NCBI GenBank assembly: GCA_964187785.1 | Contig: OZ076412.1 | Span: 17,050,001 to 17,114,000, forward strand | Length of the DNA: 64,000 nucleotides | From: Amphiscolops sp. MND2022 | Lineage: Eukaryota | Reading direction: 5' to 3' | Part shown: positions 44,351-64,000 of the stretch, in pieces | Layout of the letters: the number at the start of each line of letters is the position of its first letter | How positions within the stretch are numbered: position 1 is the stretch's first letter | Notes under the pieces: model-generated | What the model saw: only the letters and a program-made list of their open reading frames with translations | What the model was told of the DNA's origin: nothing | The model's database searches: none | Program-made: the position numbers and the translations under genes

Positions 44351-44467
44351 TCCATTTCTACGTTATTTTTGATACTTAACAATTTCATTTATATTCGTCC
44401 CAATATCTCAATTCAACTCCTTAACTCAAATACTTTCCTACCTACATGATGATCACCAGATCACAGA

Positions 44468-44667
44468 NNNNNNNNNNNNNNNNNNNNNNNNNNNNNNNNN
44501 NNNNNNNNNNNNNNNNNNNNNNNNNNNNNNNNNNNNNNNNNNNNNNNNNNNNNNNNNNNNNNNNNNNNNNNNNNNNNNNNNNNNNNNNNNNNNNNNNNNN
44601 NNNNNNNNNNNNNNNNNNNNNNNNNNNNNNNNNNNNNNNNNNNNNNNNNNNNNNNNNNNNNNNNNNN
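44468..44667. other. Assembly gap (200 N)
   Basis: Run of 200 N; the round length suggests a scaffolding placeholder. Confidence 0.99.
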
Positions 44668-44682
44668 CCTTTCTCTTTTTTT
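44668..44682 (-). promoter_or_regulatory. Putative polypurine tract of the Gypsy element
   Basis: AAAAAAAGAGAAAGG on - immediately before the N gap, where a 3' LTR would begin. Confidence 0.6.
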
Positions 44683-44697
44683 GCATGTGCTGCTTTG

Positions 44698-46005
44698 ATG
44701 AGGTACTATCCGGCTCATCTGTTGATGATAATGGTTCTTTCAGGTAATGCCTCTTGTGCATAGTTGTTTATTGAATTTGGTTGTGTTGTTTTAGTGGTGA
44801 AGTACTGTGTTCGGCTGAGCGGCAAAGGGCGGGACCGCCGATTGGTCGCCGAGCGTGAACTGGCGCAGTTTATCCGAGGATTGATGCAGTTCCTCTATCC
44901 CAGTGCAAGTACTCCTGCCGAATATGAGATTGCAGCATTGTTGGAGCCTATTGATTGTGACTGTGCTGATGTGGACACGGACGTGTATCGACTGCATTTT
45001 GGACAGTACTTCCGTTTTGACATAAGTAGTCAAGTGCCTTTCTACTACAAGTCTGTTAAAAAATTGTTAGTAGCGCTGTGTAAAGGGCTGACTACCATGT
45101 GGCAGCGGATGTGGCCTAAATATCTGAGTTTGACCCTGCTCTCATTCATAGTTGGTCCGACGGTCGTCGTGTCGATGCCTTCGTTGACACATGCGCAGTG
45201 TTGACGGCTCATGGTTTGCTTGATGTGGACAGTGGCGGGACTGTTCAGCAGCAGTACTTAGACGTAACTCATTTTTTCAAGAGGAAGTGGTCGGCTCAAC
45301 ATGACGAAGTACCTGTGGTCGAGGATATCATGATATCATTTCTCTGTGGATGTCTTACCCTCATTGGGGACGGTGTGAGCAACTTAGAAAGGTGGTGGAC
45401 CCTGTGGTTACTGGATTGCAGTTACTGGAACTTATGAATCTGATTTTGATGATGGTGCACAGACTGCGTTAGATGTTGACACATTAATGTCAAGTGTGCA
45501 TTTAGTAAGGAGCTGGTTTACTTGTTCGTTTGTCGGACAAACGCGAAAGAGCCTACAAGGATTGCTACGAGTTACTGAGTCAACCGATGTGCTGGTGTCG
45601 AGGTTGTCGGATGGTGTGCGCGGTAAGCCTTGGGACCAATTACTCAAGGTAGGAATTGATCAAACTTTGGCCCGTTGTATTGGATTTTTAACAAGCGACC
45701 TTAGCTCTGCCATTGTTCCTATGGTTGATGACAACCGGTCTACCGTCCTAGTCTAGCTAAATGTGATGGAAGCAGTTACAACTAGTCCCATTCGGGGTTC
45801 GCTTAGTCTTAAGGTGAAACGTTCTGTCGGTCCGTCAAGAGGCAAAGGAGCTTCTACTCAATCGGCTGTAAAATTGGTTGCCGGAATAAGTGAAGTCGGT
45901 ACAAGTATGCAAGCAGCTGGACAAGGTATGCGTCACTCTGATTCTGGTAAAGGAAATCGAAGTTCATCTTCACGTGGTCGTCGCCGGAGAAGCACGTGGC
46001 GCTAA
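44698..46005 (+). pseudogene. Spliced accessory ORF of about 400 aa, antisense to the Gypsy pol, unknown function, frameshifted
   Basis: Exon 44698-44743, then a GT-AG intron 44744-44794 (51 nt, phase 1, removes the in-frame TAG at 44761-44763). Successive + ORFs 44764-45204, 45198-45437, 45487-45756 and 45763-46005 join through frameshifts and stops; basic SRGRRRRSTWR C-terminus. Confidence 0.6.
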
Positions 46006-47899
46006 AACGTTAGTTCTAACGAGTTGTGCCGGCAGTCCCTCAACGCAAAAACAGAAAAAGTCAACTTCGAAAAAGAGAGCAAAACGTACCATCCTCGAAT
46101 CATCTGACGAGACTAAGAACTATTTTTGCTGTTTTGATTCTGTTGTAAACTTATCAAACTTTTAGACAGCGAGTGTTTTTCTTTGGGGAGGATTTTTTCT
46201 GTCTGCACGTTTTTTGTTAGAGTTTACTGTTGTGGATTTTGTTTTCCCCTTTTGTGGTTGAAGATTTTCGTTGATTTCTGTTGAGTATTACTCATTATTG
46301 GTAGTATCGTGTTTTGAGGTTAGTATGTTCACTTCGAGTTGTTTTTCTTCGGCTTTTGTTTCATTGAATGAAGCTGAATTTAAATGTTGCCTACGTTATA
46401 CTAATTTTATGGCCTATTTTGCATGTAAACTCTGTTAGCTGGTCTCAAATGTCAGAGCAGTAGACTCACTTTTTACAAGTGTCTCGGTTCTAGTAGCGTA
46501 GTGGCTCGCGCAACTACCAATGGAATGCTCTCACCCATCAAGCACCGCTTGTTCATCGTAGTTGTTCATGATTATCGCTTACATATGACACAAGTGGAAA
46601 CTTGGTGGGTGGGTGGAGCCGCTCTGCTCCTACAGATGATTTGAACTTGTTAAGCGTTTGCTTTATTACTCCGCTAGTTGGTGGTTCAACATGTGTTTGC
46701 TAACTAAATGTCACTTTAGGCTGTCAATCAGTCCGTAGTTTTTCATGTGAACGTTGTAATATAAGTGTCATGTTTGACGTCGTCATCGTTGATGTGTGTC
46801 TCGCGACGTCATCACTCGTGAAGTGTGTCAAATTTTAACATTCAATCAATGGGAAATGGGTATCCCCATGTCCATTGTGCTTTTAGGCAAGGGGTGGTGT
46901 ATCCCATCCCTTGTTTTTAATATGTACATGTGGTCAGAGTGTCTAAATGTGTTTTATTGTTTTATTCTTTCTGACGCGAGGCGAAGCCTACGAATCGCCA
47001 GTAAGAACAAAGACTTCACGACTTAAGTGTCAAGTAAAGGTGACCACTGCATGTAACTGTCCTAGGAAGAAGTTTTTACTTTCGGTTCGTTGGGAAAGGT
47101 TATTTGCCGTCGCAAAAACCCATATAAAACTAACACCAAATCCACTTGCTAAAGAGCAAGCTTCATCTGAAAATGCACGTCCAACCACACAGACACGCTT
47201 TTGATGACGCACCCACATAGCCGACACTATAGCTATTCAGATAAAAAGCTCGGGGACTAGGGTCTTTTGACGTAACCTAAACGAGTCAGCTAAGTCTTTT
47301 TCATTCTTGACTGTGATGTGTTACGTTCATAAAGGTGATTTAACCCTTTTGATTTAAGACTGATGGTTACAAAATTGCAGAGCTATTCCTTTGAAAGTGT
47401 GTGGTTGGAAAAATTTGTGAAGTGCATAAATTAGCATTTCGATTTTACGTGAGTTACATGTACTTAGTAATGTCGGTTACTGTTACGTAGTGTATGTGAC
47501 TGCATTACATGTATTTACTTTCGCGTTCAACTGTCTCGGTAGAGAGTAAAATTTACTCTGCCGGTAAACTCAAGTGTGAAGGACAGTGAGTATAGGTCGT
47601 CACTGAAATGGCATACAGTAAAGGAAGTAATTGGATGATGTCGTGGTTACATGTAGTGATGTAGGCTATGTTCAATTGAAGTTGTAGGTGGAAGTTTGGA
47701 AAATTTTTCCAAAGGTTTGCAGATTTCCATTGCATGAATTTTACTAAGGCAGGTTTTGCTTGTAGTTCGTGGACAAGGAAGTTATCGTACGTTTTTGGCA
47801 CAGGTGCTTCTCAAGACTATACCGAGTTATGTTGTTTCGCGTAATCGGTGCAGGCGTTTCAGAAGTAGATGCAGTTGACCCCGCGTCATCATTGACCGG

Positions 47900-49637
47900 G
47901 ACGTTGTCTTCAGCTTCGGCATGTGGTAATGATGTGTTTGTTTGTTCAGGCAGACTTTAGGATTCAGACTGTTGAGTGATGTTGGAGTGGACATTTTTCT
48001 GGCAGTGGTTGTGGCAGAGGTGGAACCTCGTGCACTTGTTCGTATTCGTAATAGATCATTTCGTGCTGTGCGTGGACTGTTTCAATTTCATTTGTATCGA
48101 CTTCTCCCCTTGCGCTGGTTGGCGCTTCATGTTCGAGCTCAGGTAGGTTATTGTTGAATATTGCTTGATCGTCAGTAGCATCAGGGTCGCTGTAATGACG
48201 ATTCGCATCGTCGATTACATCTTCAATATGATCGTGTGGTACGAATGGGCGGAGCCGCATTCTATGTACGCATTGCGTTTTAAGGTCCCTACTTTCCGAA
48301 TGATGTAATTAGAGTGAGACAAGACATTAATTACTTTGTAGGGCCCTTCCCACTTGAAAAGGTTAAATGTTAGTTTTTCAGACTGTGAACTAATTCTGGG
48401 GTTCAGCAAAAAGGCAAAGGCATTTACTTTAGGTGGTGATGCTTGTGCCTTCCGGTCGTAATGTGCTTTATACTTGTGAAAGGTTTTGATAATATTAGCG
48501 TGCGTTTCTTTGAAGTTGGAATTCAAGTTATCGACAAATGACTGGGTGTCGGTGGCGTTCCTTGGTAAACTCAGAGGATTGCTAAATTTGAGGTCCAGTA
48601 CGTTGTACGGCACGCGTCCATGGAAAATTTCGGTTGGAGTACATTCTGGGGTTCCGCAAAACGGAAAACGCATTTACTTTAAGTGGTGATGCTTGTGCCT
48701 TCCGGTCGTAATGTGCTTTATACTTGTGAAAGGCTTTGATAATATTAGCGTGCGTTTCTTTGAAGTTGGAATTCAAGTTATCGACAAATGACTGGGTGTC
48801 GGTGGCGTTCCTTGGTAAACTCAGAGGGTTGCTAAATTTGAGGCCCAGTGCGTCGTACGGCACGCGTCCATGGAAAAGTTCGGTTGGAGTACATTTCAAA
48901 GTTTGGTGGTACGTTGTGTTGTGTGCCAAAACGTTGATTTTAAGGATTTGTTTTAGCTTTTGATGTGATCTCTCGATCATCCCAATAGTTTGGCCATGTT
49001 TGACTGTAGCATGGGACACTTTGATGCCCATTGTCTTCATGAGTTCTTCAATCACCTGTGATGTAAAGACAGAGCCTTTGTCAGTGATGATGTGTTTCGA
49101 GATGTAGGCGTGTTTCGTGAAAATGTCTATCAGTGCGTTCACTACCGACTTGGTAACAGGTTTTCGGATTGGTATGGCAAACAGATATCTCGAGAAGTCG
49201 CACGCCGTCAGGATGTGCGTGTACCCGTTGGACCGTGGTAACTCTCCGACCAGATCAATTTCCATAATATCTTCAGGCCCATTGCAGGGGTCGTAAATCG
49301 GTTCGAGTGGTGGTGTTATGGAGTTGTTTTTCACAGGTTTCATTTTGATACAAGTTTGACAGTTATTCACAAATTCTTGCACCTTTTCCGTTAAACCCGG
49401 GACGTAGTACCTTTTCCTAAGTTCGGCTAGCATTTTTGAAGCGCCAGGGTGTCCCTGCATGGGGTCGCCATGCATCGTCCTGATTATGGCTTCTGTAGTT
49501 TCAGGAGGGACTACAATTTGACGAAAAGCTAAATTCCCTACGTTGTCAAAAAACTGCCTATACAACACGTTGTTCACAACTTCTAGCCATTTACGGTTTT
49601 TGAAAACTTTTGAAAAAAAGGTACTCGTAAAGTTCAC
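47900..49637 (-). pseudogene. Gypsy integrase with a 250-bp tandem duplication in its C-terminal part
   Basis: HGDPMQGHPG, CQTC, MEIDLVG, ITDKGS, MIERSH; C-terminal KWEGPYKVI and RLRPF. 48395-48645 repeats at 48645-48895. Confidence 0.92.
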
Positions 49638-49899
49638 TTGGTTTGGAGCGGTTTCCTGGAGGGGTAAGAATTCTTATCATTCGTTGGACGTCACTATTTT
49701 CACCTTGGGCATAACAATCTCTGAAGTCCCCGAAGGGCATACCTGATTTACCATGTGAACCTGGTTCCGTTGGTAGAATCAGGTGAAGAACAGCGTCTGG
49801 TCAGAGGGCGCCACAAACGGTTGCACCTGGGTTTGGATTTCGTCTATACGTTTGTGGTACTGTTCGTCATCTTCATGATGTTTTTGCGGGAACATTGCT

Positions 49900-52079
49900 A
49901 GTAGGGTTTGCATCTTAGGGTTTTGTGGTGCGGTGACGTCAGGTACGTCGTCTTCTTCTGGGATATACTTTGCTTCATCATCGTCCTGTTTGGGTGTTTT
50001 GTAGGCCTGATCGATCTCGACTTTGTAGACTGGGATTTCGTCGTTGAGCCCAAGGTGGATCCTGTCCCTCGGGTTTATGTCAAATCTGGACAGGTAATCA
50101 GCTGCTGGGTTTTCGACGCCAGGTACATGAGCCCGAACGAAGTCAAATTGGAGGGCCTGGTCGCAGTAGTTCCACAGTTTGGGCGGTATTCTCTTCGATT
50201 AGAAAAATATTGTGAGGGCTTTGTTATCAGTCATGACTTTGGTTGGCTTCTTCACACCCCACAAGATATGTGCAAATTCGTCAAACGCAAAATAAATGGC
50301 CAGGAACTCATTTGCCTACATCGTGAGTGACATCTGGCCTTCGGTAAATCTCTGCGATCCGAAAGCAACAGGAGCGTATGACTTCATCGGCCTAACATCG
50401 GATTCGTTGTAGTCCTCTATAAGTAGGACATACCCAGCTGCATGCTCACTAGCATCGCACACGATGACCAGTTGTTTGTCTGGTAGAAGTAGTCATAGGG
50501 ACATCTTGGCAGCATTAGCGAGCTTCTCATTGATGTCAAATATAGCATCTTTGTGAATTTGGGTGAGTTCATACTTGACGTCCTTCTGTAACAACTTGTA
50601 TAGAGGAACCAGTTTCTCAGCTAACTTCGGTATGTACTGGCGGTAGAATTGCACAAAGCCAATATAGCGTTGTAGTGACTCACAAAGTCGAACTTCACGA
50701 AGTCGAGTGACTCACGAAGTCGGACTTCACAGACGTCGGCAATTTGATGTTTTTCTAGAACTTGTCTATTTTTTCTTCTATGGGTGCGACTCCCTTGGAG
50801 GTAATGCTTCGTCCCAGGAATTCGATTTCAGGGTGTCCAAAAGCGCATTTAGCCATTGACAGTTTCAGGCCAGCTTGGCTATTCTTGATGAAGACTGATT
50901 CAATAATATCGACTAACTCTTCGACATTGTTGGCTGCAATGCCGATGTCATCGACGTTTTGAGCACACTTGTGAGCCTTGACTAGAGGGTCCAAGTACTC
51001 TCGAACACTACTATTAAAGGCTGATAGTGATCGGTTCAGTCCTTGAGCTAGTCTGAGGTAGGCGAACGTCTTCAATTACTTCCGAAGTTGAAGGCGAGTA
51101 ACTGGACTGATTGTTCATCTGCTATCTGCAAACAGTGATACACTTGCGAACAGTCCAGCTTGCAGAAGTATCGTTTTCCAGCCTTGTGCTGCGCTGCGTC
51201 GGCCATTGTCGTTACTGGGTGGTTATGCTGGTTGTAATCATTCTTCAGTAAGTGATTGATCCGTCTGAGGTCAACAAGAATTCTAAGATTCCCATTCGGT
51301 TTACGCTGGGCAAAGATGGGTGAGGAGTACTTACTGTACGGTAACGTGGTGATGATACCGTACTCCTGCATCAGTGCTAAATCAACGAGCAAGTCATCTT
51401 TCAGGTTCGTCGGAATGGGTAAGCTCTGAGCATAGACTGGTTCGTCGTGTTTGGGTGTCAACTTTATCTTGAATTCAGTGTTGATCCCTATATCCAGTCT
51501 GTGCCTGGCAAAGATGTCATGGTACTTGACCAGTAGAGCCCCAATTGTTTGCTTCTCGGGTTGGCTCAGGATTGACTGTTCCCACTGAAAGTTTGCCAGG
51601 AACTCCTGCCGCTGTTCTTCAATTACGGTTGGGTCCAATTTCTCCTCCTCCCTGAGTTTGATGATCTCGACGTAGATACGTCTTTTGATCTTGTTGAGTT
51701 TCGACGGGTCAACACATGTCTCAGGGGTAGGGTACCACCTTCTGTCTGATTTCATGGTTGGATCCTGGAAGATTTGGTTCAAAACTGCATCAGCATCATC
51801 TGGGTATCGTGAGATCAGATTGAATTGGTGTTCAGTCATCGGTTGTAGATTATTGGCTTGTTTTGGTGTCATGATCTTGAATGATGCTACTGCGGTTCCC
51901 ACAATATTGGTTATCTGGTAATCAAGTGGGTTGGTGTCTTGGGCATGTGTCCGACCCTCTTGGGTCTCGCTAAGAGCCGGGGACACCAACAAGTGTGAAC
52001 GTCGTTCAAAGGCGGGCAGTACTTCTACAGTACCAGTGATGTCGCCTAGGTCGCGTTCAACCACCACTGAGACGAACAC
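49900..52079 (-). pseudogene. Gypsy reverse transcriptase and RNase H, frameshifted
   Basis: YSSPIFAQRKPNG.LRILVDLRRIN, FCKLDCSQ, LAQGL..SLSAF, QNVDDIG (YVDD mutated to NVDD), EFLGRSIT; RNase H CDASEHAAGYVL. Confidence 0.92.
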
Positions 52080-52184
52080 TAGTTGATTGGGTTGGATGAC
52101 AATCTTCTGAGTTGTATTCAGTTCGAGTAGCTTGTTTTTGAATTTCCCGTTACCCGATCGTAGCTGGAGGGTGATGTCTGGGAA

Positions 52185-52523
52185 TTATACGATGTTGTTA
52201 GCCAGATGAAGAGTAACTGAGTATTTCTTGAAGAACGACATTCCAATTACTACGTTCCTCATGGTCGGGAGAACCATGAATGTTTCTTCGAAGACTTTTC
52301 CGCCAATGAAAAATCGTAGTAAAACTTGCTTTCTCACTGGTACAATGTTGCCATTAGCAGTTTGCACCTTGAACTCCGGGGCAGGGAGTTCTTGGAGAAG
52401 GGCTGCTGGATGTGCTGAGAGGATGCGACGAAGTTCTGCTTCTGATATTGTACTTTGGATTGCACCGGTATCGAGAAGGCCAAAATTTTCGTATGCACGA
52501 AATTGAAGTGGTACGTACAACAT
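52185..52523 (-). pseudogene. Gypsy aspartic protease
   Basis: FGLLDTGAIQS catalytic motif, TANG flap, VIGMSFF. Confidence 0.88.
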
Positions 52524-52888
52524 CCTGTCTTTCTTGTTGAGTTGTAAGGTGGCACTCAGATGGCGGATTTCGTATTTTGGTTTCTTCGGCTACTTGTTTG
52601 GCTTCGGCCGTGTTGGTTGGTCAACAGCATTCGGCAACTCGGTTGTTGTGTTGCTCTGCTGCACTGATTTTGCGTTGTTGACTTCGGGTCTTCGTTTCAG
52701 TTCCTTCGGTTTAATGGTGTAGGCATCGATCGAATATCGTGTGATGACAAAGTTTGTAGTTTCATTAGTACAAGTTGAAATACGGGACTGCCACCTCGTG
52801 TGGTTTATTGTCTTGAGTTGGTTTTGAGTACTAGGTTGTTTTTGGTTATGGCGCGCACTTTTGTTTGGTTGAGGATGATGACGTGGCA

Positions 52889-54347
52889 TTAGAAGTTTTT
52901 TTGGGTCTTCCACGTCATCGTGTTGTTCAATCTCCGCGGCATTCTCGGCTTCATCATTGGTTGTGTGGGACAGTTCGTTTGCGTTATAGACCCTGGCATT
53001 GTTTTGTCTAAAGTCCATCTGAATTGCCTGTTTTCCTCTGTTGACTGTTTAGGATACGGGACACTCCTGTAAGCCGACGTAGTCGTATTCCTGTAGTAAC
53101 AGTCTCGGGCTGAATGTCCCCCTTCCTGCAAATGACAGACTAGCTTCGAATTGTTTTCGGGTTTGGGTTGTTGCTCTTGGCTGGGTTGGGTGACGGGTTG
53201 CGAGTTCGAATTCGTCAATTTGCCTTGGTTTTCTTTCCGGAGTCGTTTTCGACATTCTGCCCACTTATGCCCATGTATATATTATGCCCAAGGTCGGCAT
53301 TGACCATCAAATTTCCTCTTCGTTTCCTCGTTCTGTTGGGGTTGAGATTGGGCATTTTGTGGCGCAGTTGCTGCTGGTTGTGGTGCGCTCATCTGGTTGA
53401 ATGGTTGTGCACTAGAGTTTGTTGGGAGGAGTTGTGCATACTGACATCTGCGTTGCGCAAATGTTCGGATTTCCTCCAATGAAGCATCATGCTTTTCTGC
53501 CATTGCCAGTTCATTTTGCATTTGGACGGGAAGTTTGGCGAACAGGAAGGTCTCGGTTATCTCGCCAGATCTATCTCCAAATGCTTGTTTCGCTACCTTT
53601 TTGAATTTTTCGAGAAATTCGTTAAAGGTCTCTGCTGTTGGGTCATAGCGCATTTGGTCAAATTCGTATTTGGCCACTTCGTTCAAGTCTTCTTTTGCGT
53701 ATTCTTCCTTGATGTAACGCAAGACTTGTGCCAATGTAGTTTGGGCTGTTATCTTCAGTGATTGCCAGAATTCAATGGCATTAACACGAAGCAGGCTCTG
53801 AAAGTACGTCAGTTTCTGTTCCTCTGACAGTTTGTGTTGGTGTGGCCTGAGGTGGTTGAGCAGGAGGTGTTCAAATTCGTTGTATTTCTCCCTGTTGCCT
53901 CTGAAGTGTTGAACCTGGTGTGGAGGATTTTCGGATGTTGTACATTATCCGTCATCGTGTCTCTCGGTGGATTTTGGTGACTATGTCATCAATTTGGTGG
54001 GCGGATGACTGAGGGTAATGCGATGTGGATGGGCGCATTGGGTTCGTCTGATTAATGTTTGTCTGAACTCCTGTCACCATGTCGGAACGTGTCTCATGAC
54101 TATTTGAGACAGTGTTCAATTTGGTCCCTTCTCTATTACTAGAGAATATCTTTTCGATCAACGCAAGTACCAAATTTGTCAACTCGCTTGTTTGTCTATT
54201 CATGTCGGAGAAGCGCTGGTTAACAGTATCTCGTCCAGAATTATGTTGGTAATTCAGTACATCTCCATCATTAAATTCACTAATTTGTTCCCTAGTAAGG
54301 ACTTCGGGAATACTACATTCGCTTTCAGAGTCCCTGTGTCTATCCAT
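52889..54347 (-). pseudogene. Gypsy gag with an upstream extension starting in the putative LTR; frameshifted
   Basis: MDRHRDSE..ISEFNDGD..RFSDMNRQ (54347-53952), then a frameshift into MTDNVQHPKIL..FRGNREKYNEFEHLLLNHL, FLFAKLPVQMQNEL and degenerate knuckles (C..EGGHSARDC). Confidence 0.8.
54068..54079 (-). promoter_or_regulatory. Gypsy primer binding site (tRNA-Leu-like)
   Basis: TGGTGACAGGAG directly after ...GTTCCGACA; one mismatch to the complement of a tRNA-Leu 3' end (TGGTGTCAGGAG). Confidence 0.6.
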
Positions 54348-55593
54348 TTCGTTTGTTCAATCTGATTATCTCTAAGTGTCTGCGATAAAATTTTAACCAT
54401 ATGGGAAAAGATATTGTAGCTTGAAGTATGAATTGAAACTATCGAGAGGTTGGGTTATATTGGAAGGTAGGAAGTAGTAGCGACTGCACTGTATCGTATA
54501 ACAAAATCTATAATGGCGCTTTCTCACCCAATATTGAGTATGTCGACGTAGTTGGCTTCAGTACATCGACCAATCACATATCAGTATTTCGATTATGTTA
54601 ATTAGCACCTTGGTTGGTAGTAACGTGGTTTGAGTCTACTTTTGGTAGTTACGCTACCATAGTAACATGACTCACTAATTAGATGCGAATGGTATAACTT
54701 GGTACAAATGGTATTGCTATGTAGTGATGCAGCCAACATTATATGTATCAATGGTTAAAATGGACATTTAATTATAATGCACTAAGACTAAAAATGGAAA
54801 CTGATGATGATCTATCATATATTTTACAAACGTGGTTAATCATGATATCGCGAATTAACTCAATAATCACATGAAGAAAAATGTATGATTTATGTTTATG
54901 AAACATTGGTAGTTTGAGGATTATTCTAAACGATGCACTATAAGTGTTTTTGTGTTTTAGTTTTATGATGCAGTTCGTTCAACAGCATTCTTCACTTCCG
55001 TATGCAATTAATTTCATGCGTCAGTCATGACAATTTGTTTTTCAATGTACATCAGAACTGTGTTTCAAATGTCGGTTTTTGAGAACAAAGAATAAGCTTT
55101 CAGGCAGCTTTACTAAAATCACACTTCTAGAGATATATTTTTCTTGAGTTTGCATTTTTGACTACTTCACAGTCTAAGAAGTGCCCATCTAGCTTTCTCC
55201 CTTAAGTCAATATTGAATTGACAAAACTGAGATGACTGCAGCCAGATTATTGTCTGAGAAAGTAAAAAAGTCCTAATTAGAAACATTCTTGATAAAAATG
55301 TCTGGAACCGCTTTTTCGATAATAAGGGAATAGGGACTAGCGGAATTGTTTGTTAAGTGATGTTCAATGGAACGAAAGTTGTCAGGCAACTCGATTTCTC
55401 AGTCGAAACATGTAAATATCTTGAAAGTTTGGCACTTCTCTAGCAAATCTAACACTTTTCGCTAATTCATTTTTTGCAAAAGTCTTGCAAGAATCTTGCC
55501 AGACAGTTTGCAAGAATAATGCATTGACTTGCAAGATCTTGCAAGACGTCTTGCAAGATATTTTCAAGAATCATGTTTTTTTTCAACCTAGAG

Positions 55594-56064
55594 CATCACA
55601 ATAAAACGAAAAAAAAGTGCTTTAGGAATTGTTGAAAAGATAGTTCAACAGAATTCATTATGTAAAAGTTTTTTAACGTGTGGGGGAAAAGAAAAAAAGA
55701 GGCTAAGATCCTTACTGAAATAACGCCAGAAGGCCAAAAAAGCGTTTCAGAACTCTGAGAATCAACCTTTTTCTTATCGAAGAACTTCCAAGGAAGCAAG
55801 CTAAATGCAGAAAGATCAAAAATCCAAGATCAATGAAAACAATTTTGACAAATCCGGAATTCTTTCAGAAAAGGTTGATTCTGAGAAAACATTCGAAGAA
55901 TATAAAAACGCTTTTTTATTCTTCTGGCATTATTTTAATTAGCAACTTCGGTTCTTTTGCCTTCTCTCCCACACTTTAAAATACTAAATTTATTTCGAAT
56001 GAATTCTATTGAAATAACTTTTTAACTATTCCTAAAGCACTCTTCTTTTAGTTCTATTTTGATG
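55594..56064. mobile_element. Foldback/MITE-like element with about 180-bp imperfect inverted arms
   Basis: GTGCTTTAGGAAT (near 55617) versus ATTCCTAAAGCAC (near 56028); CAGAATTCATT versus AATGAATTCT; GAGAATCAACCTTTT (55757) versus AAAAGGTTGATTCT (55869); spacer about 95 bp. Confidence 0.7.
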
Positions 56065-56591
56065 ACTTCACATAAATATAATCAAACGCATATAATCAGT
56101 GACTACATTTTGATAATTTTACAAACATTTACCGCAAACGTTTCGCATGCTTCCATTATTGAATCATGGTCAGGAGTAACGAACTAAGAACCCAGGTTTT
56201 TGATCTTTGCGAATCTGTGCAGATCTGCAGGGTTCTGCAAAGATCGTTGCACTGAATCTTGAAGATTCATACAGAACTGCAAGATCTTTACGGAAGTGTG
56301 CAGATTTTCTTTAAAGATTTTTGCAGAAATATGTTTCTCTGCAGCTTCTAAGGAACCAATATACTGCATTTTTGGACTTCTTCAACTACTTTATCGAGTA
56401 TTTTAGCTGACCTAGATCACTTAAAATTCTAGAGAAGGAAAATGTGTCCCCATCACGGTAATTTTGGTGACTGGAGAAAGTGCGGTTTTGGTACAACACG
56501 GTAATTTATCCCTTTCACTCGAACTTTCCAGAAGTGGTAGTGTTGCGATAGCAATACAAATATCGTTAATTCAAAACAAACAAATTATAAG

Positions 56592-56660
56592 GCAGCTTGG
56601 CTCAGCGGTAGAGTACAAGGCCGGTATCTGACCGGCGTGGGTTCGATTCCCGGACATGCA
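56592..56660 (+). promoter_or_regulatory. tRNA-derived Pol III type-2 promoter cassette in the 5' LTR
   Basis: A box TGGCTCAGCGG (56598-56608); B box GGTTCGATTCC (56640-56650); D-arm GCTC/GAGT; hairpin GCCGG-7 nt-CCGGC; T4 runs just downstream; acceptor stem incomplete. Confidence 0.78.
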
Positions 56661-56889
56661 AAATATTTTATATTTTGGAAATATTTCTCCGATTTCGGTA
56701 AAAATACTCTCGAAATGGCCTTGCTATTCAGATCAAAAAGTGAGTCATATTCTTTTGTAATTTGGTGATCAAACTTTGAGTTGGCCGTAATTATTCTCTT
56801 GTTTGGCTTTCTCATTGAAAAAGTTGAATAGACGTTTCTTCTCATACAAATCTTTGGCATCAATCAAAAGATTTTACATGGTGGCCATT

Positions 56890-57332
56890 GAGAGGCTTTC
56901 ACGTTGGAAGACATCGTCAAGAGCAAAAGCAGCGGCACCTGTGAGTACAGGAGATACAGCCAAGGAACCCACGTGCGCTCTTCACTCTGCTGCGATCCCA
57001 GACTCGAGTTCTACTGGAAGTGTGTCATTGCCCCCAAAGTGTACCAGACCAGTGGCATCCTGCTGGCCTTTCTCTCGCTGACGCTGGTGTGGAGCGAGGT
57101 GACCTTCTTCCAGAAGCACTGAAGTGTTCGCTTCTGGCCGCGACTACTTTCTCATACAAGCGCTGTGTGTGGTGCTGCTGCTGTACATGTGTGTCACTGT
57201 GTACTGGACCGTGTTCCGGGTGCGCTTCCTCAACTTCTACTACCTGTCCCCGCACCATCACACCGACGAGTACACACTCCTCTTCAGTGGACTTCTTCTG
57301 TGTCGGCTGACGCCCTCTGTGTGTCTGAACTT
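56890..57332 (+). pseudogene. LMBRD2: Captured intronless fragment of host LMBRD2 coding sequence inside BEL-2
   Basis: AFTLEDIVKS..DPRLEFYWKC..LSLTLVWSEVTFF and YMCVTVYWTVFRVRFLNFYYLSPHHHTDEYTLLFSGLLLCRLTPSVCLNF resemble LMBRD2 (AF.[66 protein letters not shown]; recalled). GC-rich island; about 13 codons missing with a stop and frameshift at about 57120. Confidence 0.9.
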
Positions 57333-57625
57333 TTTCGAGCGTGTGAACTGGGGGATTGTGTGTGAACTTTTTCGAGAGAAAACTTTGGAAAACTTCTCTC
57401 TGTTTGAACAATTTTAATTGAATATCATTGATGTGTGCTAGTCGATAGCAAGGCCTTTTTAAAAAAAAACAATTGTTGGAAGATATCGTGATAAACCGTA
57501 AAACAACGTGATTTACTGTGAAGTACCCTAGACTGTTTTATGAAATTGAAGTGAAATAGAGTGAATTTTTCTGAACTACTGCAAAAAACGAGAACTTTTC
57601 CAAAAAACAAACAGCAAAAGGCTGA

Positions 57626-58228
57626 TTGGTTTTCATATTAGCTGCTAGTTCGTTGCATCATGCAATAGAAACTATTAACCCCGAAAATCAAAACGCTCTA
57701 AAAGAAAAAGTTTATTCCATACCGGGCCTGAGCTTGAACAATAACGCAAAAAATCCTAAAAAAGTAGTTCAGAACTTGATTGAAAAGGATTTCAAAGACG
57801 AAAAAGACCTAATAATTTGGCATGATGTTATAAACAATACTATTTGCAAGCACAAGAGTAACTTTTATCGTGCTCTTCCCGTTCCAACTTTAATTGAAGT
57901 ATTGAAATCATATCAAAACAGGATCAGGGCTCTAGTGTACTGCCAACGTGACCGAACGCCAGACATTTTTGCCGAATTGCAGAAAACTAACATCCTAGCC
58001 TTGAGTATTGGAAAAGACCTCATTTCATTGCGAAAGCAAAAAGATTCAGACTATTTGCAAAATTTGAAGGCATTACATCAGAGCCCCGATCTGGAATTGA
58101 AACATTTGCATACAATTTTGAAACATGAAGATGATTTGTCTCAAATTACTGCCCGTAGTCGCCCCAAACGTCATTCGAAACGCGCCCGCAAGGCGTTAAA
58201 AAACACGTTATCTGCTGCCAGCGAGTAA
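57626..58228 (+). CDS. SGNH/GDSL hydrolase-like (esterase-fold) accessory ORF, 200 aa, upstream of gag in BEL-2
   Basis: Open frame with blocks VFILAASSL (block I Ser), SIPGLSL (block II Gly), LIIWHDVINN (block III Asn) and ALHQ (block V His, Asp absent), as in LINE ORF1-type esterases; basic tail RPKRHSKRARK. Start codon uncertain (TTG in the track; upstream frame degraded). Confidence 0.7.
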   Translation: MVFILAASSLHHAIETINPENQNALKEKVYSIPGLSLNNNAKNPKKVVQNLIEKDFKDEKDLIIWHDVINNTICKHKSNFYRALPVPTLIEVLKSYQNRIRALVYCQRDRTPDIFAELQKTNILALSIGKDLISLRKQKDSDYLQNLKALHQSPDLELKHLHTILKHEDDLSQITARSRPKRHSKRARKALKNTLSAASE

Positions 58229-58470: not shown

Positions 58471-61400
58471 ATGACAGATCCGCAACAAGACAAGGTTCAA
58501 AAACTTCACGAAAACCGACTAAAGGCACAAACTGACTTGATTACTCTTCAACAAAAGATACTCGATTCCATTACAAGTCGAGATCGAAGGGTTCGAGTCG
58601 AACGTCTTGTTAACGAAACCGAAGATACAATGACGAAGGCTTTCAACAAAAACGAACAGTTGAAAACGCTTGCATCTAAAACATCTGACTCGGAAACAGT
58701 TCAAGCCGACTTAGAAAAGTGGTTTAGCGAAGTCACTGAGCAAAATGACGAAGTGTTAAGAAAAGCTCGTGAGTACATCGACAGTTGCACTGGATCCGAT
58801 GTTAATTCCAACTCATCAATTGGCACTGTCCACAAAAGCACCTCCAGAAGATCATCAACTTCTGTCAAAACAAAAACGTCTAGTCAAAGACAAAGGGATC
58901 TCCTTATGGCGACCCAACGTCGAGAAGAACTAGAACGACAAAATGCAAATGCCATTCGTTTGGCGAAACAGAAACAAGAGGTAGCACGAAAACAATTGGA
59001 ACGCGAAAGAGAGCGTTTGGAAGAAGAACAAGCTCTCCAATTACAAGAACTGGAAGAAGAAAATAGACGAAAACTTGCCGAAGCCAAGCTCACTGAGTTG
59101 GAGTTGACAGACGACTTTTCTCAGGCGTCTGACGAACTTCATGATACACTCTCTCAGATTAGTAATCACTCCAAGCAAACCACGTCACTGAGAGTGTCCA
59201 ACTGGGTCAATGTAGTCAATGAACCCGACAATGTTTCAAATCAACTGCAGACTAATACCGTTGATCTGAACAATGTCGCTGGATCGTCCACTCCCACAGT
59301 CATTACCGACTCAACCAATGTTGTTCAAACCAGACAAGCAATGCTACCGATGAGATCGTCAGTTAATTTCAATATTGGACTGGGACAAAACCAGGGACAA
59401 AACCAGAGTCCCTCATTCGGAATTTCGTCTGTTCCTACCAATCCGAGGATAACCAATACGCTACCCGCGAACACTACAACGAATACTGTTTCCTCCGCGA
59501 CGGTACCAGTGACTATGTACCCGCCAGTACAACTCTCTGTCACTCCTACTACGACAATGACTCAAGTCAACATTCCAACGAGCCATGTCATACCGAACGT
59601 GTCTGCTTGGACATTTCCGGCTCCGAGTAACCTCCCCACAGTACATGCTACAGTTCCGCAGCCTGTAAGAGGACCAGTTACGTTAACGAGCACAACTACA
59701 ACACCAATAGTGACCACAACCGGGATTTTCACACCAGTTGTACCAATCCAAAGTGGAGGAACAACCTTCTACTGTAACCCTCTTGCGACAACATTTCCAA
59801 CAACAACTTTACCGATTCAACAGACTACAGCAGCCGCCGCGAATTTTCCAGTTTCAACGTTTCCGACTACAGTCCAGTCGACCGTTCCCCCTTCAACGCT
59901 AACTCCAGTTGCTGTCCAAGACCTTGCGCAGTTACTGACTGCTGCCAAAAAAGACCATCTTCCTGAGTGGAAACTAGAGCAATATAGCGGAGACCCATTG
60001 CAGTGGCACGAGTGGATAGGTCAGTTTAGGAGTGCTATCGACTCCGCACCACTCTCGAACGATGTTAAGCTGACGTATTTAAAAACGCTTGTGACAGGCA
60101 AAGCGAAGGCAGCAATTGTGGAATTTGCATACTGTGGGACTATGTACCAAGATGCACTGAAGACGCTCGAGCGGAAATTTGGTCAACCACAGGCAGTTGT
60201 GTCTGCTCATCTTGACAAACTGAATAGCTTCCCTCCATTGAAAATGCATAACAGCGAGAATGTGATAGCATTTTCTGCAACAATTTCCGCTATGGTTGGC
60301 GTGTTCCGTTCGCTGAAATACGAACACGATTTGTCAAGTGCAGCCTTATTGGCTCAAGCCGTGCAGAAACTACCCCCAAACATGAGGGAAGCTTGGTCTA
60401 TGCACACTGTCAAGAAAGATTGGAGCCGACCAACCCTCTTGAAATTTAACGAATGGTTGAATGATAAAGCCGAAGCACATGAGAGGATGAAAATCTCAAC
60501 CACAAAGCCCAAGAGCGATGAAAGTGCGCAATCAGTCACTCGAACAAAGACTGGTACGAAAGTTTTCGCCGCCACAAGTTCTAGCACATCTTCAAAAGAA
60601 TCCAGAACTAAGCCGATTCAAGTGCAACTAAACTGTAACGTGTGCAAGGATAACCATCCACTGTGGCGCTGTCGCGTGTTCCTTGATGAAACGCCGACCG
60701 ACAGAGCAAAGACTGTTGCCGAAAACAAACTTTGTTTCTCCTGCCTGAAAGGAAACCATTCTTTCCGACAATGTCCACAATCACGCAAGTGCAACAAAGA
60801 TGGATGTAACAGCTCTCATAACACCCTGCTACATGGCGCAGAGAGAGTTTTCCAACCAAAAACGACACCGAAATCGTCCAGTAACCAAGCAACTGGATCG
60901 CGTAGCCTCAAAACAACTGTGAATAAAGCTGGAGAGAGCTCCGGAGTCTGTTCCGTGACCGATGTGAAAGGACTGCTCCAAATTACTGAAGTTGAAGTTC
61001 ACACTTCGACTAATTCCGCCAAGGTAATGGCACTGTGTGACTCAGCCTGCAGTCACTCTTGGATCTCCGAAGATCTCGCAACCAAGTTGAACGTAAAGGG
61101 CTTACCGACCAAACTAACTGTTCATGGCATCAATTCTCAACAAGTTGTTGACACTCAAATAGTTGAGCTTAAGTTGACACCTGTTCATTCGGGTGGCTCT
61201 TGCTCTACTTTTGATGTCAAACCTTACGTCAGAAAAAACTTGCATGTTGGAAACGATGTCATTGATGTTGACCAATTGAAGCAACAGTACCCTCATTTGG
61301 AGCCCGTCGCTCTGAGCAAGTACAGTTATGGAGAGGTCGAAATGATACTGGGTCAAGACGTGTTCCACTCAATCCGCCCGTTGGAGTATTTTGAATCCGA

Positions 61401-63099
61401 CCGAAAAAATACCCCAATTGCCGTCCGATTACCGTTGGGTTGGGTTTTGAGTGGACCATTACCTTCGACTACAGGACTCGTCTCGACTTGCTTCAAAGCT
61501 GTCACGCAAAGCGAGACTGACTCCAAGTTGGCCGATCAACTTCGGAGTTGGTATGAAATGGAGTCGTTTGCTGCAATGAAACAAATAGACCCGCGCTCTG
61601 CTGACGATGCTAGAGCGTCGAAAATTTTGCAAGAAACAACATATCATGACGGATGCCGATATCAGGTCGGTATGTTGTGGGCTGATGACGAGAGTAGTCT
61701 CCCGAACAACTACTTTTCAGCCTTAGTGCAATTGAAATCCCTTGAACGCCGACTCGAAAAAACTCCTGAACTGAAAGCGAGTTACGCTCAGACCATTAAG
61801 GACGACTTCGACAAGGGATACATCGTTCAAGTCGACAAGTCAGACTGTTTCAGAATTGACAACCCGCGTGAGTGGTATCTACAGCACCACCCAGTGATCC
61901 ACCCTCACAAGCCAGGAAAAGTACGCCGTGTACTCAATGGTGCAGCGAAATTTCATGGTGTTTCACTGAACAGCACACTTTTAACTGGTCCTGACTTGTT
62001 GCAAACGTTAATCCATGTGCTCATGCGATTCCGACAACATCCCTATGCTGTATCCGCTGACATCGAGGGAATGTTTTTACAAGTTGGTGTGATCCCCGAA
62101 GACCGACCGTCTCTTCGTTTTCTGTGGCGGGAGGACGCAGCAACAGACGTCGCTGTGTACCAATACGTACGTCACATCTTCGGTTCGAAGGATTCGCCAA
62201 CGTGTGCCAACTACGCTTTGCAACAGACTGCTCGTGACAACCGAATCCAATTTCTTGAAGCCGCCAACAGTGTCGAAAACAATTTTTACATGGACGATTA
62301 TCTTGAATCAAGCCTCACCATCAACGAAGCAACCAAGAAGGCTCAAGATCTAGTCGAAATGTTAGCCAAAGGTGGTTTCAACCTAACCAAGTTTGTCAGT
62401 AATGTTCCAGGATTGGTGAAAATCGTCGACCCCAAATATCAACTGCCTGCCGAATCGAACGAGAAAGTCTTAATAACAGATGAAGACACTTCTCATGTTT
62501 TGGGTTTGAAATGGAACCATAGTCGTGACACCTTGGTTGTCAGCAGAGGAACTACACCTGACTTGAATCGACCAGTAACACAGCGTGTTGTCCTTAGTTT
62601 AGTGTCCGCGGTGTATGATCCCATTGGTCTTGCGGCACCATATACTGTAACAGCCCGCCTTTTGTTGAAAGACATTTGGCGCCTGAGTGGGCAACAATGG
62701 GACAACAATCTGCCTGACAACGTTAGCAAAAAGTTTCTTGAATGGGCCGCAGAGCTCCCCAATTTGAGCGAAATAACCATTCCGAGATGTTATTTTCGTG
62801 GAACCATGAGAAGTGTTGAGTTACACGTTTTCGGCGACAGCTCTCAAGATGTCTTTGCCGCTGTTGCTTTCCTCCGTGCGCGAGTGAGCCGCAACGAGAG
62901 GACTGAAACCCAGTTAGCCTTTGTCTTTGGGAAAGCTCCTGTTGTCCCGATGAAAGCGCTCACAATACCGAAATTGGAACTCCAAGCCGCACTCTTAGCA
63001 GCCCGACTAAAGGATGAAGTTGAACAAGCACTCACGGTACCTGTTGAGCGAACGTTCATGTGGACCGATAGTACAACTGTGCTCCAATGGCTCCAGTGA
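58471..63099 (+). CDS. BEL-2 Gag-protease-RT-RNase H polyprotein (1542 aa), truncated by the integrase deletion
   Basis: Coiled-coil N-terminus; T/P-rich linker; HLPEWKLEQYSGDPLQWHEW; three C/H knuckles; ALCDSACSHSWI (PR); LTGPDLL, ADIEGMFLQV, FYMDDYL (RT); FGDSSQ, IPKLELQAA (RH); ends WTDSTTVLQWLQ*. Confidence 0.96.
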   Translation: MTDPQQDKVQKLHENRLKAQTDLITLQQKILDSITSRDRRVRVERLVNETEDTMTKAFNKNEQLKTLASKTSDSETVQADLEKWFSEVTEQNDEVLRKAREYIDSCTGSDVNSNSSIGTVHKSTSRRSSTSVKTKTSSQRQRDLLMATQRREELERQNANAIRLAKQKQEVARKQLERERERLEEEQALQLQELEEENRRKLAEAKLTELELTDDFSQASDELHDTLSQISNHSKQTTSLRVSNWVNVVNEPDNVSNQLQTNTVDLNNVAGSSTPTVITDSTNVVQTRQAMLPMRSSVNFNIGLGQNQGQNQSPSFGISSVPTNPRITNTLPANTTTNTVSSATVPVTMYPPVQLSVTPTTTMTQVNIPTSHVIPNVSAWTFPAPSNLPTVHATVPQPVRGPVTLTSTTTTPIVTTTGIFTPVVPIQSGGTTFYCNPLATTFPTTTLPIQQTTAAAANFPVSTFPTTVQSTVPPSTLTPVAVQDLAQLLTAAKKDHLPEWKLEQYSGDPLQWHEWIGQFRSAIDSAPLSNDVKLTYLKTLVTGKAKAAIVEFAYCGTMYQDALKTLERKFGQPQAVVSAHLDKLNSFPPLKMHNSENVIAFSATISAMVGVFRSLKYEHDLSSAALLAQAVQKLPPNMREAWSMHTVKKDWSRPTLLKFNEWLNDKAEAHERMKISTTKPKSDESAQSVTRTKTGTKVFAATSSSTSSKESRTKPIQVQLNCNVCKDNHPLWRCRVFLDETPTDRAKTVAENKLCFSCLKGNHSFRQCPQSRKCNKDGCNSSHNTLLHGAERVFQPKTTPKSSSNQATGSRSLKTTVNKAGESSGVCSVTDVKGLLQITEVEVHTSTNSAKVMALCDSACSHSWISEDLATKLNVKGLPTKLTVHGINSQQVVDTQIVELKLTPVHSGGSCSTFDVKPYVRKNLHVGNDVIDVDQLKQQYPHLEPVALSKYSYGEVEMILGQDVFHSIRPLEYFESDRKNTPIAVRLPLGWVLSGPLPSTTGLVSTCFKAVTQSETDSKLADQLRSWYEMESFAAMKQIDPRSADDARASKILQETTYHDGCRYQVGMLWADDESSLPNNYFSALVQLKSLERRLEKTPELKASYAQTIKDDFDKGYIVQVDKSDCFRIDNPREWYLQHHPVIHPHKPGKVRRVLNGAAKFHGVSLNSTLLTGPDLLQTLIHVLMRFRQHPYAVSADIEGMFLQVGVIPEDRPSLRFLWREDAATDVAVYQYVRHIFGSKDSPTCANYALQQTARDNRIQFLEAANSVENNFYMDDYLESSLTINEATKKAQDLVEMLAKGGFNLTKFVSNVPGLVKIVDPKYQLPAESNEKVLITDEDTSHVLGLKWNHSRDTLVVSRGTTPDLNRPVTQRVVLSLVSAVYDPIGLAAPYTVTARLLLKDIWRLSGQQWDNNLPDNVSKKFLEWAAELPNLSEITIPRCYFRGTMRSVELHVFGDSSQDVFAAVAFLRARVSRNERTETQLAFVFGKAPVVPMKALTIPKLELQAALLAARLKDEVEQALTVPVERTFMWTDSTTVLQWLQ

Positions 63100-63641
63100 G
63101 AAGTTTTAAGCATACTTTCTATGCGATACTCGGCAACCGTCGCTTGACAGACGAAATACTAACAACGGTGTTTTGTCTTGTGGAGCAGAGCCTCAACGCT
63201 CGTCCGCTGATTCCAGCAAGCGCAGATGCAACCGACTTGGATGCTTTGACACCTAACCACTTCTTGCTTGGAACAGCTGGATCGTCTCTACCGTCCCATG
63301 CTAACTGTGATTTTGGCCACCGCAAGCGATATGCACGCGCCCAAGCTTATTCTGACGCTATCTGGAACAGGTGGCTTAAAGAGTACGTGCCGACTTTGAA
63401 TCGTCGCTCAAAGTGGTGCACACAGTCCAACAGGCAATTGAAAACCGGAGATCTCGTTTGGATTGTAGAACCCACTAACCCGAGAGGCTACTACCCTCTC
63501 GCACGTGTCATCAAACTCCATTTTGGCAGCGATGCTGTCGCTCGCTCTGCCGAAGTTAAAACCACGTCTGGAAACCTTGTCCGTCCGGTCGTGAAACTAG
63601 CCCCAGTCCTTCCTTCCCCTGATTTAATTGATTTATCATAA
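63096..63641 (+). pseudogene. BEL-2 integrase C-terminal remnant
   Basis: VRSFK..RRLTDEIL..VEQSLNARPL..LTPNHFLLG..RWLKEYVPTL..GDLVWI..LARVIK..RPVVKLAP. The HHCC finger and all three DDE acidic residues are missing. Confidence 0.92.
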
Positions 63642-63798: not shown

Positions 63799-64000
63799 TG
63801 TTGCGATAGCAATACAAATATCGTTAATTTAAAACAAACAAATTATAAGGCAGCTTGGCTCAGCGGTAGAGTACAAGGCCGGTATTTGACCGGCGTGGGT
63901 TCGATTCCCGGACATGCAAAATATTTTATATTTTGGAAATATTTCTCCGATTTCGGTAAAAATACTCTCGAAATGGCCTTGCTATTCAGATCAAAAAGTG
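63799..64000 (+). repeat. BEL-2 3' LTR (partial, window edge), including a second copy of the tRNA-like cassette at 63850-63918
   Basis: Matches 56541-56742 except for two C/T differences. Confidence 0.95.

Follow-up and report, generated by a model that had tools for sequence, protein, structure and literature searches.

The window analysed here was a 64,000-nucleotide stretch of contig OZ076412.1 from Amphiscolops sp. MND2022 (assembly GCA_964187785.1, positions 17,050,001 to 17,114,000 of the forward strand). Its last part was occupied by a BEL/Pao LTR retrotransposon, as established by the domain order, the paired LTRs, the target-site duplication and the primer-binding site (PBS). All parts of the element lay on the plus strand. 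A 5-bp target-site duplication (56536-56540; its second copy followed the 3' LTR, just outside the window) was succeeded by the 5' LTR (56541-56878), which was 338 bp long, had TG...CA ends and was identical to the 3' LTR at 335 of 338 positions. The 18-nt PBS (56879-56896) was complementary to the 3' end of tRNA-Ile(AAT), and the tRNA gene with this end was called tRNA-Ile(aat) by ARAGORN. After a single base (56897) came a piece of a host gene (56898-57332) and then the leader kept by the element (57333-57625), including a native second repeat unit at 57357-57376. The coding part consisted of an extra ORF of 200 codons upstream of gag (57626-58228), a gag-protease-RT ORF with the DUF1759, Asp_protease_2, RVT_1 and Peptidase_A17 domains (58471-63099) and the C-terminal remainder of pol with DUF5641 (63072-63641). 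Thus, the order was Gag (DUF1759), protease, RT, Peptidase_A17 and DUF5641, as in BEL/Pao. About 1.26 kb of pol was absent at 63095 in the window copy and present in its sisters. The 3' LTR started at 63799, ran to the end of the window at 64000 and continued to 64136 beyond it.

The domain set, the TG...CA LTRs, the 5-bp target-site duplication and the tRNA PBS were all BEL/Pao-like; unlike typical members, this element had the 200-codon ORF before gag, tRNA-like boxes in the LTR and a hypervariable leader. The LTR contained at 56598-56650 two motifs that we take to be a tRNA-like A box and B box. ARAGORN called no tRNA in this stretch, and Rfam gave 0 matches on 56500-57700 and on 20 family loci. 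When the family was divided into 63 types (defined below), 43 of them had the B-box motif upstream of the PBS, compared with one that had it downstream. The motif also recurred across LTRs that were otherwise not alignable. Parts of LTRs resembling tRNAs have been described in non-autonomous LTR elements (PMC10886601), whereas the carriers considered here had coding ORFs. The conserved extra ORF was present in 92 of the 103 family places; in sisters it began with Met, a start that the window copy lacked. No Pfam family or PDB match was found for 57626-58228, the ESM Atlas returned only leads below 0.9, and a single-sequence fold had low confidence (pLDDT 46). Some of its motifs tentatively resemble those of an SGNH/GDSL hydrolase. 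Upstream of the BEL/Pao element, the window also held a decayed Gypsy-like element on the minus strand (44764-54356), in which an internal 250-nt segment was duplicated in tandem (48393-48892) and which adjoined an assembly gap near 44450-44680, as well as MITE-like nested inverted repeats with 51- and 68-nt arms (55609-56048).

A preliminary description of this DNA, made from the letters and the ORF translations, had pointed to a GC-rich island inside an LTR retrotransposon that encoded two stretches of an LMBR1-family protein and lacked introns. These observations were confirmed. The GC content was 0.50-0.64 across 56900-57349 versus 0.30-0.40 in the flanking 50-nt windows, and two reading frames matched Pfam LMBR1 (E 4e-07, profile positions 339-377; E 3e-25, positions 395-464). 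The best named homologue was an LMBRD2-like protein of an acoel, with 86% identity over 91% of a 69-aa query; the name LMBRD2 rests on this closest named homologue, as just one of five matches carried an informative name. The ESM Atlas had no usable match for the fragment, and PDB sequence searches gave nothing significant. A search of the same genome identified the parent gene at G000:C9:60972400-60978659, which matched the fragment in five separate pieces. Namely, these were the 3' part of a first captured exon (56898-56941), a second (56942-57006), third (57007-57159) and fourth exon (57160-57293) and the 5' part of a fifth (57294-57332), which ended in the 3' junction. All four joins corresponded to GT...AG introns of the parent, approximately 511, 263, 92 and 4910 nt long as derived from their borders. 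Since each join sat on a parental intron, 56898-57332 is a copy of a spliced host LMBRD2-like mRNA, and an origin from a single exon, raised earlier as a possible refutation, was excluded.

The captured span corresponded to approximately 470 nt of the parent mRNA and replaced the first part of the element leader. It started one base past the PBS, and its end lay about 290 nt upstream of the first ORF. It was flanked by both LTRs and had neither a poly(A) tail nor a target-site duplication of its own. The suggestion to look for it in the 3' LTR was answered in the negative, as LMBRD2 sequence was present in neither LTR. The preliminary description had also counted about 13 missing codons and asked if they equalled one skipped exon; the gap was in fact a 32-nt deletion at 57116/57117 that lay within the third captured exon, between two CAC triplets, and shifted the frame. 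A protein role of the fragment is unlikely because an in-frame stop precedes it and the deletion breaks its frame. A foreign species as the source of the GC island was ruled out, as the host's own gene had these GC-rich exons with 96-98% identity.

The LMBRD2 insert was found in at least four copies of the element on four contigs, each with a different 5-bp target-site duplication. The LTR pairs of these copies were identical at 335/338, 335/338, 329/333 and 336/337 positions. All four shared the 32-nt deletion and 12 substitutions, and private substitutions were present in addition; thus, there was a single capture, which was followed by spread through transposition. When the first base was left out, 10 of the 13 shared substitutions separating the insert from the assembled gene were at third codon positions (p 0.0016), compared with 5 of 10 private substitutions of the copies in a hand count. 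At one amino-acid difference, the protein of a relative agreed with the insert and not with the assembled gene. Because the shared substitutions were mostly at third positions and the relative sided with the insert, the donor allele probably differed from the one in the assembly. The mostly silent differences between the insert and the gene at 60.97 Mb of G000:C9 also hinted at high allelic diversity or at capture in a diverged lineage.

At the 3' junction, the motif GAACTT (57327-57332) was common to the donor, the insert and the leader of two insert-free sisters, which bore out the microhomology proposed earlier. The near-repeats reported around this junction both existed, starting at 57320 and 57357. 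The second, however, was native leader, found in the two insert-free sisters, and the first was a hybrid of donor and leader. At the 5' junction, the last four bases of the PBS matched the donor and the next base, 56897, differed from the assembled donor gene in all four copies. This base is either a copy of tRNA A58 or a silent difference of the donor allele. Since it was a silent third-position change, like 10 of the 13 other shared differences, it may be allelic and not derived from the tRNA.

The position directly after the PBS was variable throughout the family. An exact pattern of LTR end plus PBS had 119 matches in the genome; the 100 of them that were listed, together with near matches, gave 103 distinct places, with at least one identical tandem copy merged. 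When the places were classed into types by the 30 nt that follow the PBS, 63 unrelated starts were found among the 103, and the window element's own group had 8 starts in 14 copies. Among 279 copy pairs that were at least 93% identical at the start of the extra ORF, 240 belonged to different types and parted immediately behind the PBS. In 37 such close pairs, the identity, which was about 1.0 before this point, fell there at once to 0.38 or less and then stayed near random. The sharpness of this edge was partly built in, as places were collected by their PBS and typed by the following sequence; the part that was not built in is the rarity of a shared first 30 nt among close pairs. Further downstream, many sister types rejoined the common leader near 57400. 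The length of this slot was 616-933 nt between the 10th and 90th percentiles of the 42 types measured, and since leader length stayed narrow, the data suggest that leaders were replaced over time and did not accumulate. Some breakpoints lay inside the leader, such as in type 3, whose members diverged after 44 nt. Clean LTR pairs with 5-bp target-site duplications were found in eight of nine copies examined.

Two other arrangements of the slot were considered and rejected. Stacking of new pieces ahead of old ones was tested in one case, where the longer form was colinear with the donor over the boundary, so that the shorter form was a PBS-anchored deletion. The slot was also not an intron between a donor site in the LTR and the extra ORF, as sisters had their own start codon there without an upstream one. 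Among the family loci, we also noticed head-to-tail copies sharing LTRs in the order LTR-internal-LTR-internal (L044-L045, G000:C3:6307500-6327499) and two loci (L123 and L103) with two PBS sites less than 2 kb apart, whose leaders were different or near-duplicate.

A second family-wide feature was found at the same place. The tetranucleotide NCGA directly followed the PBS in 19 of 63 types and 29 of 103 places, compared with 1.4% in the background (binomial p about 1e-20). It was restricted to offset 1, with 0-2 of 63 types at other offsets. The host tRNA-Ile had TTCGA just before its last 18 nt, so that TCGA was a copy of its positions 58-55. In the 29 places with NCGA, the base opposite A58 was T 18 times, A 8 times and C 3 times; over all 63 types it was T in 23, A in 23, C in 16 and G in one (p 5e-4 for the scarcity of G). 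A spread over T, A and C with G scarce is the pattern expected from misreading of m1A, and the observed first-base spread fits misreading of m1A58. In nine types, members that shared a slot differed in the first 1-4 bases, several of them by gaining NCGA. Because such members differed just in these bases, the PBS junction has been rewritten repeatedly. Four donors had a 5' junction that could be read, and a full NCGA was absent from all of these; tRNA read-through and host capture are linked by their shared position only. The tRNA-Ile pattern had 510 matches genome-wide, 498 of them on one strand, and among those listed nearly all were in one array. This was a tandem array of tRNA-Ile(AAT) genes with a spacing of approximately 215 bp on G000:C3 from about 50.90 Mb (L145).

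Eight donor searches covered 9 of the 63 types, which were picked among close relatives and coding-looking slots. They led to spliced mRNAs in three cases (sense in two, antisense in one), to a gene matched in one piece in three more and to no gene in two. Besides LMBRD2, the spliced captures were a sense copy of two exons of an NHL-repeat gene, from which an intron of about 22.6 kb was gone, and a copy of two exons of a fucosyltransferase gene lacking an intron of about 3.7 kb. The latter was antisense because its GT-AG intron read on the opposite strand. Among the single-piece matches, type 8 was 98.7% identical to an exon-like ORF ending at GT, and no second exon was found within 30 kb or by a pattern search. 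Type 7 had 78% identity to an exon-like stretch that also ended at GT, and types 62 and 19 matched an ARM/TIR ORF in antisense at 79%. For type 24, the search found no gene and matched leaders of other elements only; for type 3, it found no gene, and a duplicated locus was matched across a gap without GT-AG. Pfam searches with the slot frames of the other 62 types matched none of the 120 sense and none of the 114 antisense frames, a test that was insensitive, as three gene-derived slots were also missed.

These results bear on the possibility that the diversity of the slot arose mostly by swapping of leaders among Pao families sharing the tRNA-Ile PBS, together with fast leader decay, and that host captures were rare accidents. 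The type 7 slot was also present behind a different LTR in L149 (99.6%), type 24 had matches to element leaders alone, and type 19 was a PBS-anchored deletion of type 62. Swapping and decay certainly explain part of the 63 types. As the main source of the diversity, however, they seem rather unlikely to us, since six of the eight donor searches led to gene-like loci outside elements, three of them with introns removed, and five of the eight types in the window's own group had such donors.

We consider it likely that host sequence was captured at a faulty plus-strand transfer, when DNA ended at the PBS, often extending past m1A58, primed on host RNA or cDNA. The role of m1A58 as a plus-strand stop and the background of plus-strand transfer are covered in PMC8599865 and PMC3187697, respectively. 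For the LMBRD2 case, minus-strand synthesis would have left the element RNA at the short match GAACTT in the leader and then copied a co-packaged LMBRD2-like mRNA, never reaching the PBS. The plus-strand strong-stop DNA would end in a copy of the tRNA, and in this BEL/Pao family it would often reach 1-5 bases beyond m1A58. Such an over-extended end would be mismatched to its proper partner and could pair through 1-4 bases with whatever nucleic acid was available and be extended there. If the partner was foreign cDNA produced by the minus-strand jump, the result would be a sense capture, as proposed for LMBRD2. A free plus-strand end priming directly on an mRNA would yield an antisense capture, on the leader of a related element a leader swap, and further along its own leader a PBS-anchored deletion. 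As both LTRs and the PBS are preserved, together with all sequence from about 57400 on, the products keep transposing; therefore, the leader would become a slot of turnover, mostly 600-950 nt long.

The preliminary description had attributed the insert to template switching of the reverse transcriptase onto host mRNA at short homologies. The capture of mRNA by reverse transcription stood, given the missing introns, the 6-nt match and the renewed movement of the chimera. Ordinary minus-strand switching at both ends was not the best account, because the 5' junction, which that description had left aside and which proved the more informative of the two, lay at the PBS end, where sisters carry many other sequences. 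Under such a classical double switch, the enzyme would pass to the mRNA and back during minus-strand synthesis, the edge at the PBS would mark the last return point or a pause at the tRNA duplex, and read-through would be a separate, later scar. Both LMBRD2 junctions had microhomology (4 and 6 nt) and the fragment was in sense orientation, as this model would have it. It is also the accepted model for LTR-mediated retrocopies in animals, and a fixed return site is known from BLASTOPIA (PMC5131818). Nevertheless, return points should scatter over the leader, yet 240 of the 279 close pairs differed from the first base on. Moreover, a double switch cannot yield an antisense copy of a spliced mRNA, and the 5' matches of other donors were just 1-2 nt. 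We therefore regard this explanation as unlikely.

Host repair is a still different route: after a failed plus-strand transfer, end-joining would use available cDNA to fill the break left at the PBS, during or after integration. It would agree with 5' junctions of very short or no homology and with inserts in both orientations. However, we judge it quite improbable, as eight of nine copies had clean LTR pairs with a 5-bp target-site duplication, the slot length was narrow (616-933 nt), and the NCGA mark requires copying of the tRNA by reverse transcriptase. Finally, an assembly chimera, which had been named as a possible refutation, or a DNA-level capture of a single exon can practically be dismissed, as four introns were gone and the insert recurred on four contigs, each time with another target-site duplication and with substitutions private to the copy; no observation spoke for either. 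Capture at a faulty plus-strand transfer thus remained our preferred reading.

Retroviral products related to those proposed here were reportedly obtained in the Temin and Swanstrom laboratories at about 1990-92, namely PBS-anchored deletions with insertions and LTR-associated inserts derived from the cell. As proposed here, an error of plus-strand transfer joined the PBS end to other, even cellular, sequence. Those products were rare single-cycle events in the laboratory, whereas in Amphiscolops they were a standing feature of a natural family. In delayed second-strand transfer of HIV-1, the reverse transcriptase passes m1A58, a copy of the tRNA marks PBS deletion junctions in proviruses, and misreading at position 58 was reported in 5 of 44 sequences (PMC12657518). 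The HIV-1 products described there were deletions that carried 7-54 nt of tRNA sequence, and their proviruses counted as defective; in our family, the tRNA copy was 1-5 nt long, foreign RNA was gained and the elements still transposed.

LTR-mediated retroposition is known in animals (Tan et al. 2016, PMC5131818). As in that work, where Pao/BEL elements were among the carriers, we found a partial, intron-free host mRNA in an LTR element, with short junction matches, no poly(A) and recopying of the chimera. In the Drosophila cases of that paper, the retrocopy replaced part of the element ORFs, whereas here just the leader was replaced and the ORFs stayed. Here, moreover, the 5' junction had a constant position at the end of the PBS and bore a mark of tRNA read-through, and some captures were antisense; the main text of PMC5131818 made no mention of the PBS, tRNA or plus-strand. 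A literature search, whose coverage left out most older subscription papers, did not turn up any account of a PBS-anchored slot that captures sequence recurrently in a mobile family. The LMBRD2 capture alone is a further case of a known phenomenon, and what is new is the PBS-anchored, tRNA-marked slot that receives sequences in two orientations.

Gene capture by LTR elements and retroviruses has usually been credited to minus-strand template switching and studied case by case. Here, dozens of natural events in one family fell on a single base, occurred in both orientations and bore a chemical signature, namely tRNA read-through and misreading of A58; genome sequence is therefore enough to test at which step capture happens. 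If an LTR promoter drives antisense pieces of spliced mRNAs, small RNAs that target genes could arise directly from them, and at approximately 96% identity a small-RNA effect of the LMBRD2 fragment on its parent, as the preliminary description had proposed, is possible. As a tentative and rather doubtful extension, habitual read-through into the tRNA may have made strand transfer promiscuous, so that the leaders of this family keep sampling host transcripts in either orientation and remain mobile. The resulting library of sense and antisense fragments might feed small RNAs against host genes or protect the elements against silencing. The base next to each PBS would then be a fossil record of m1A58 misreading in vivo.
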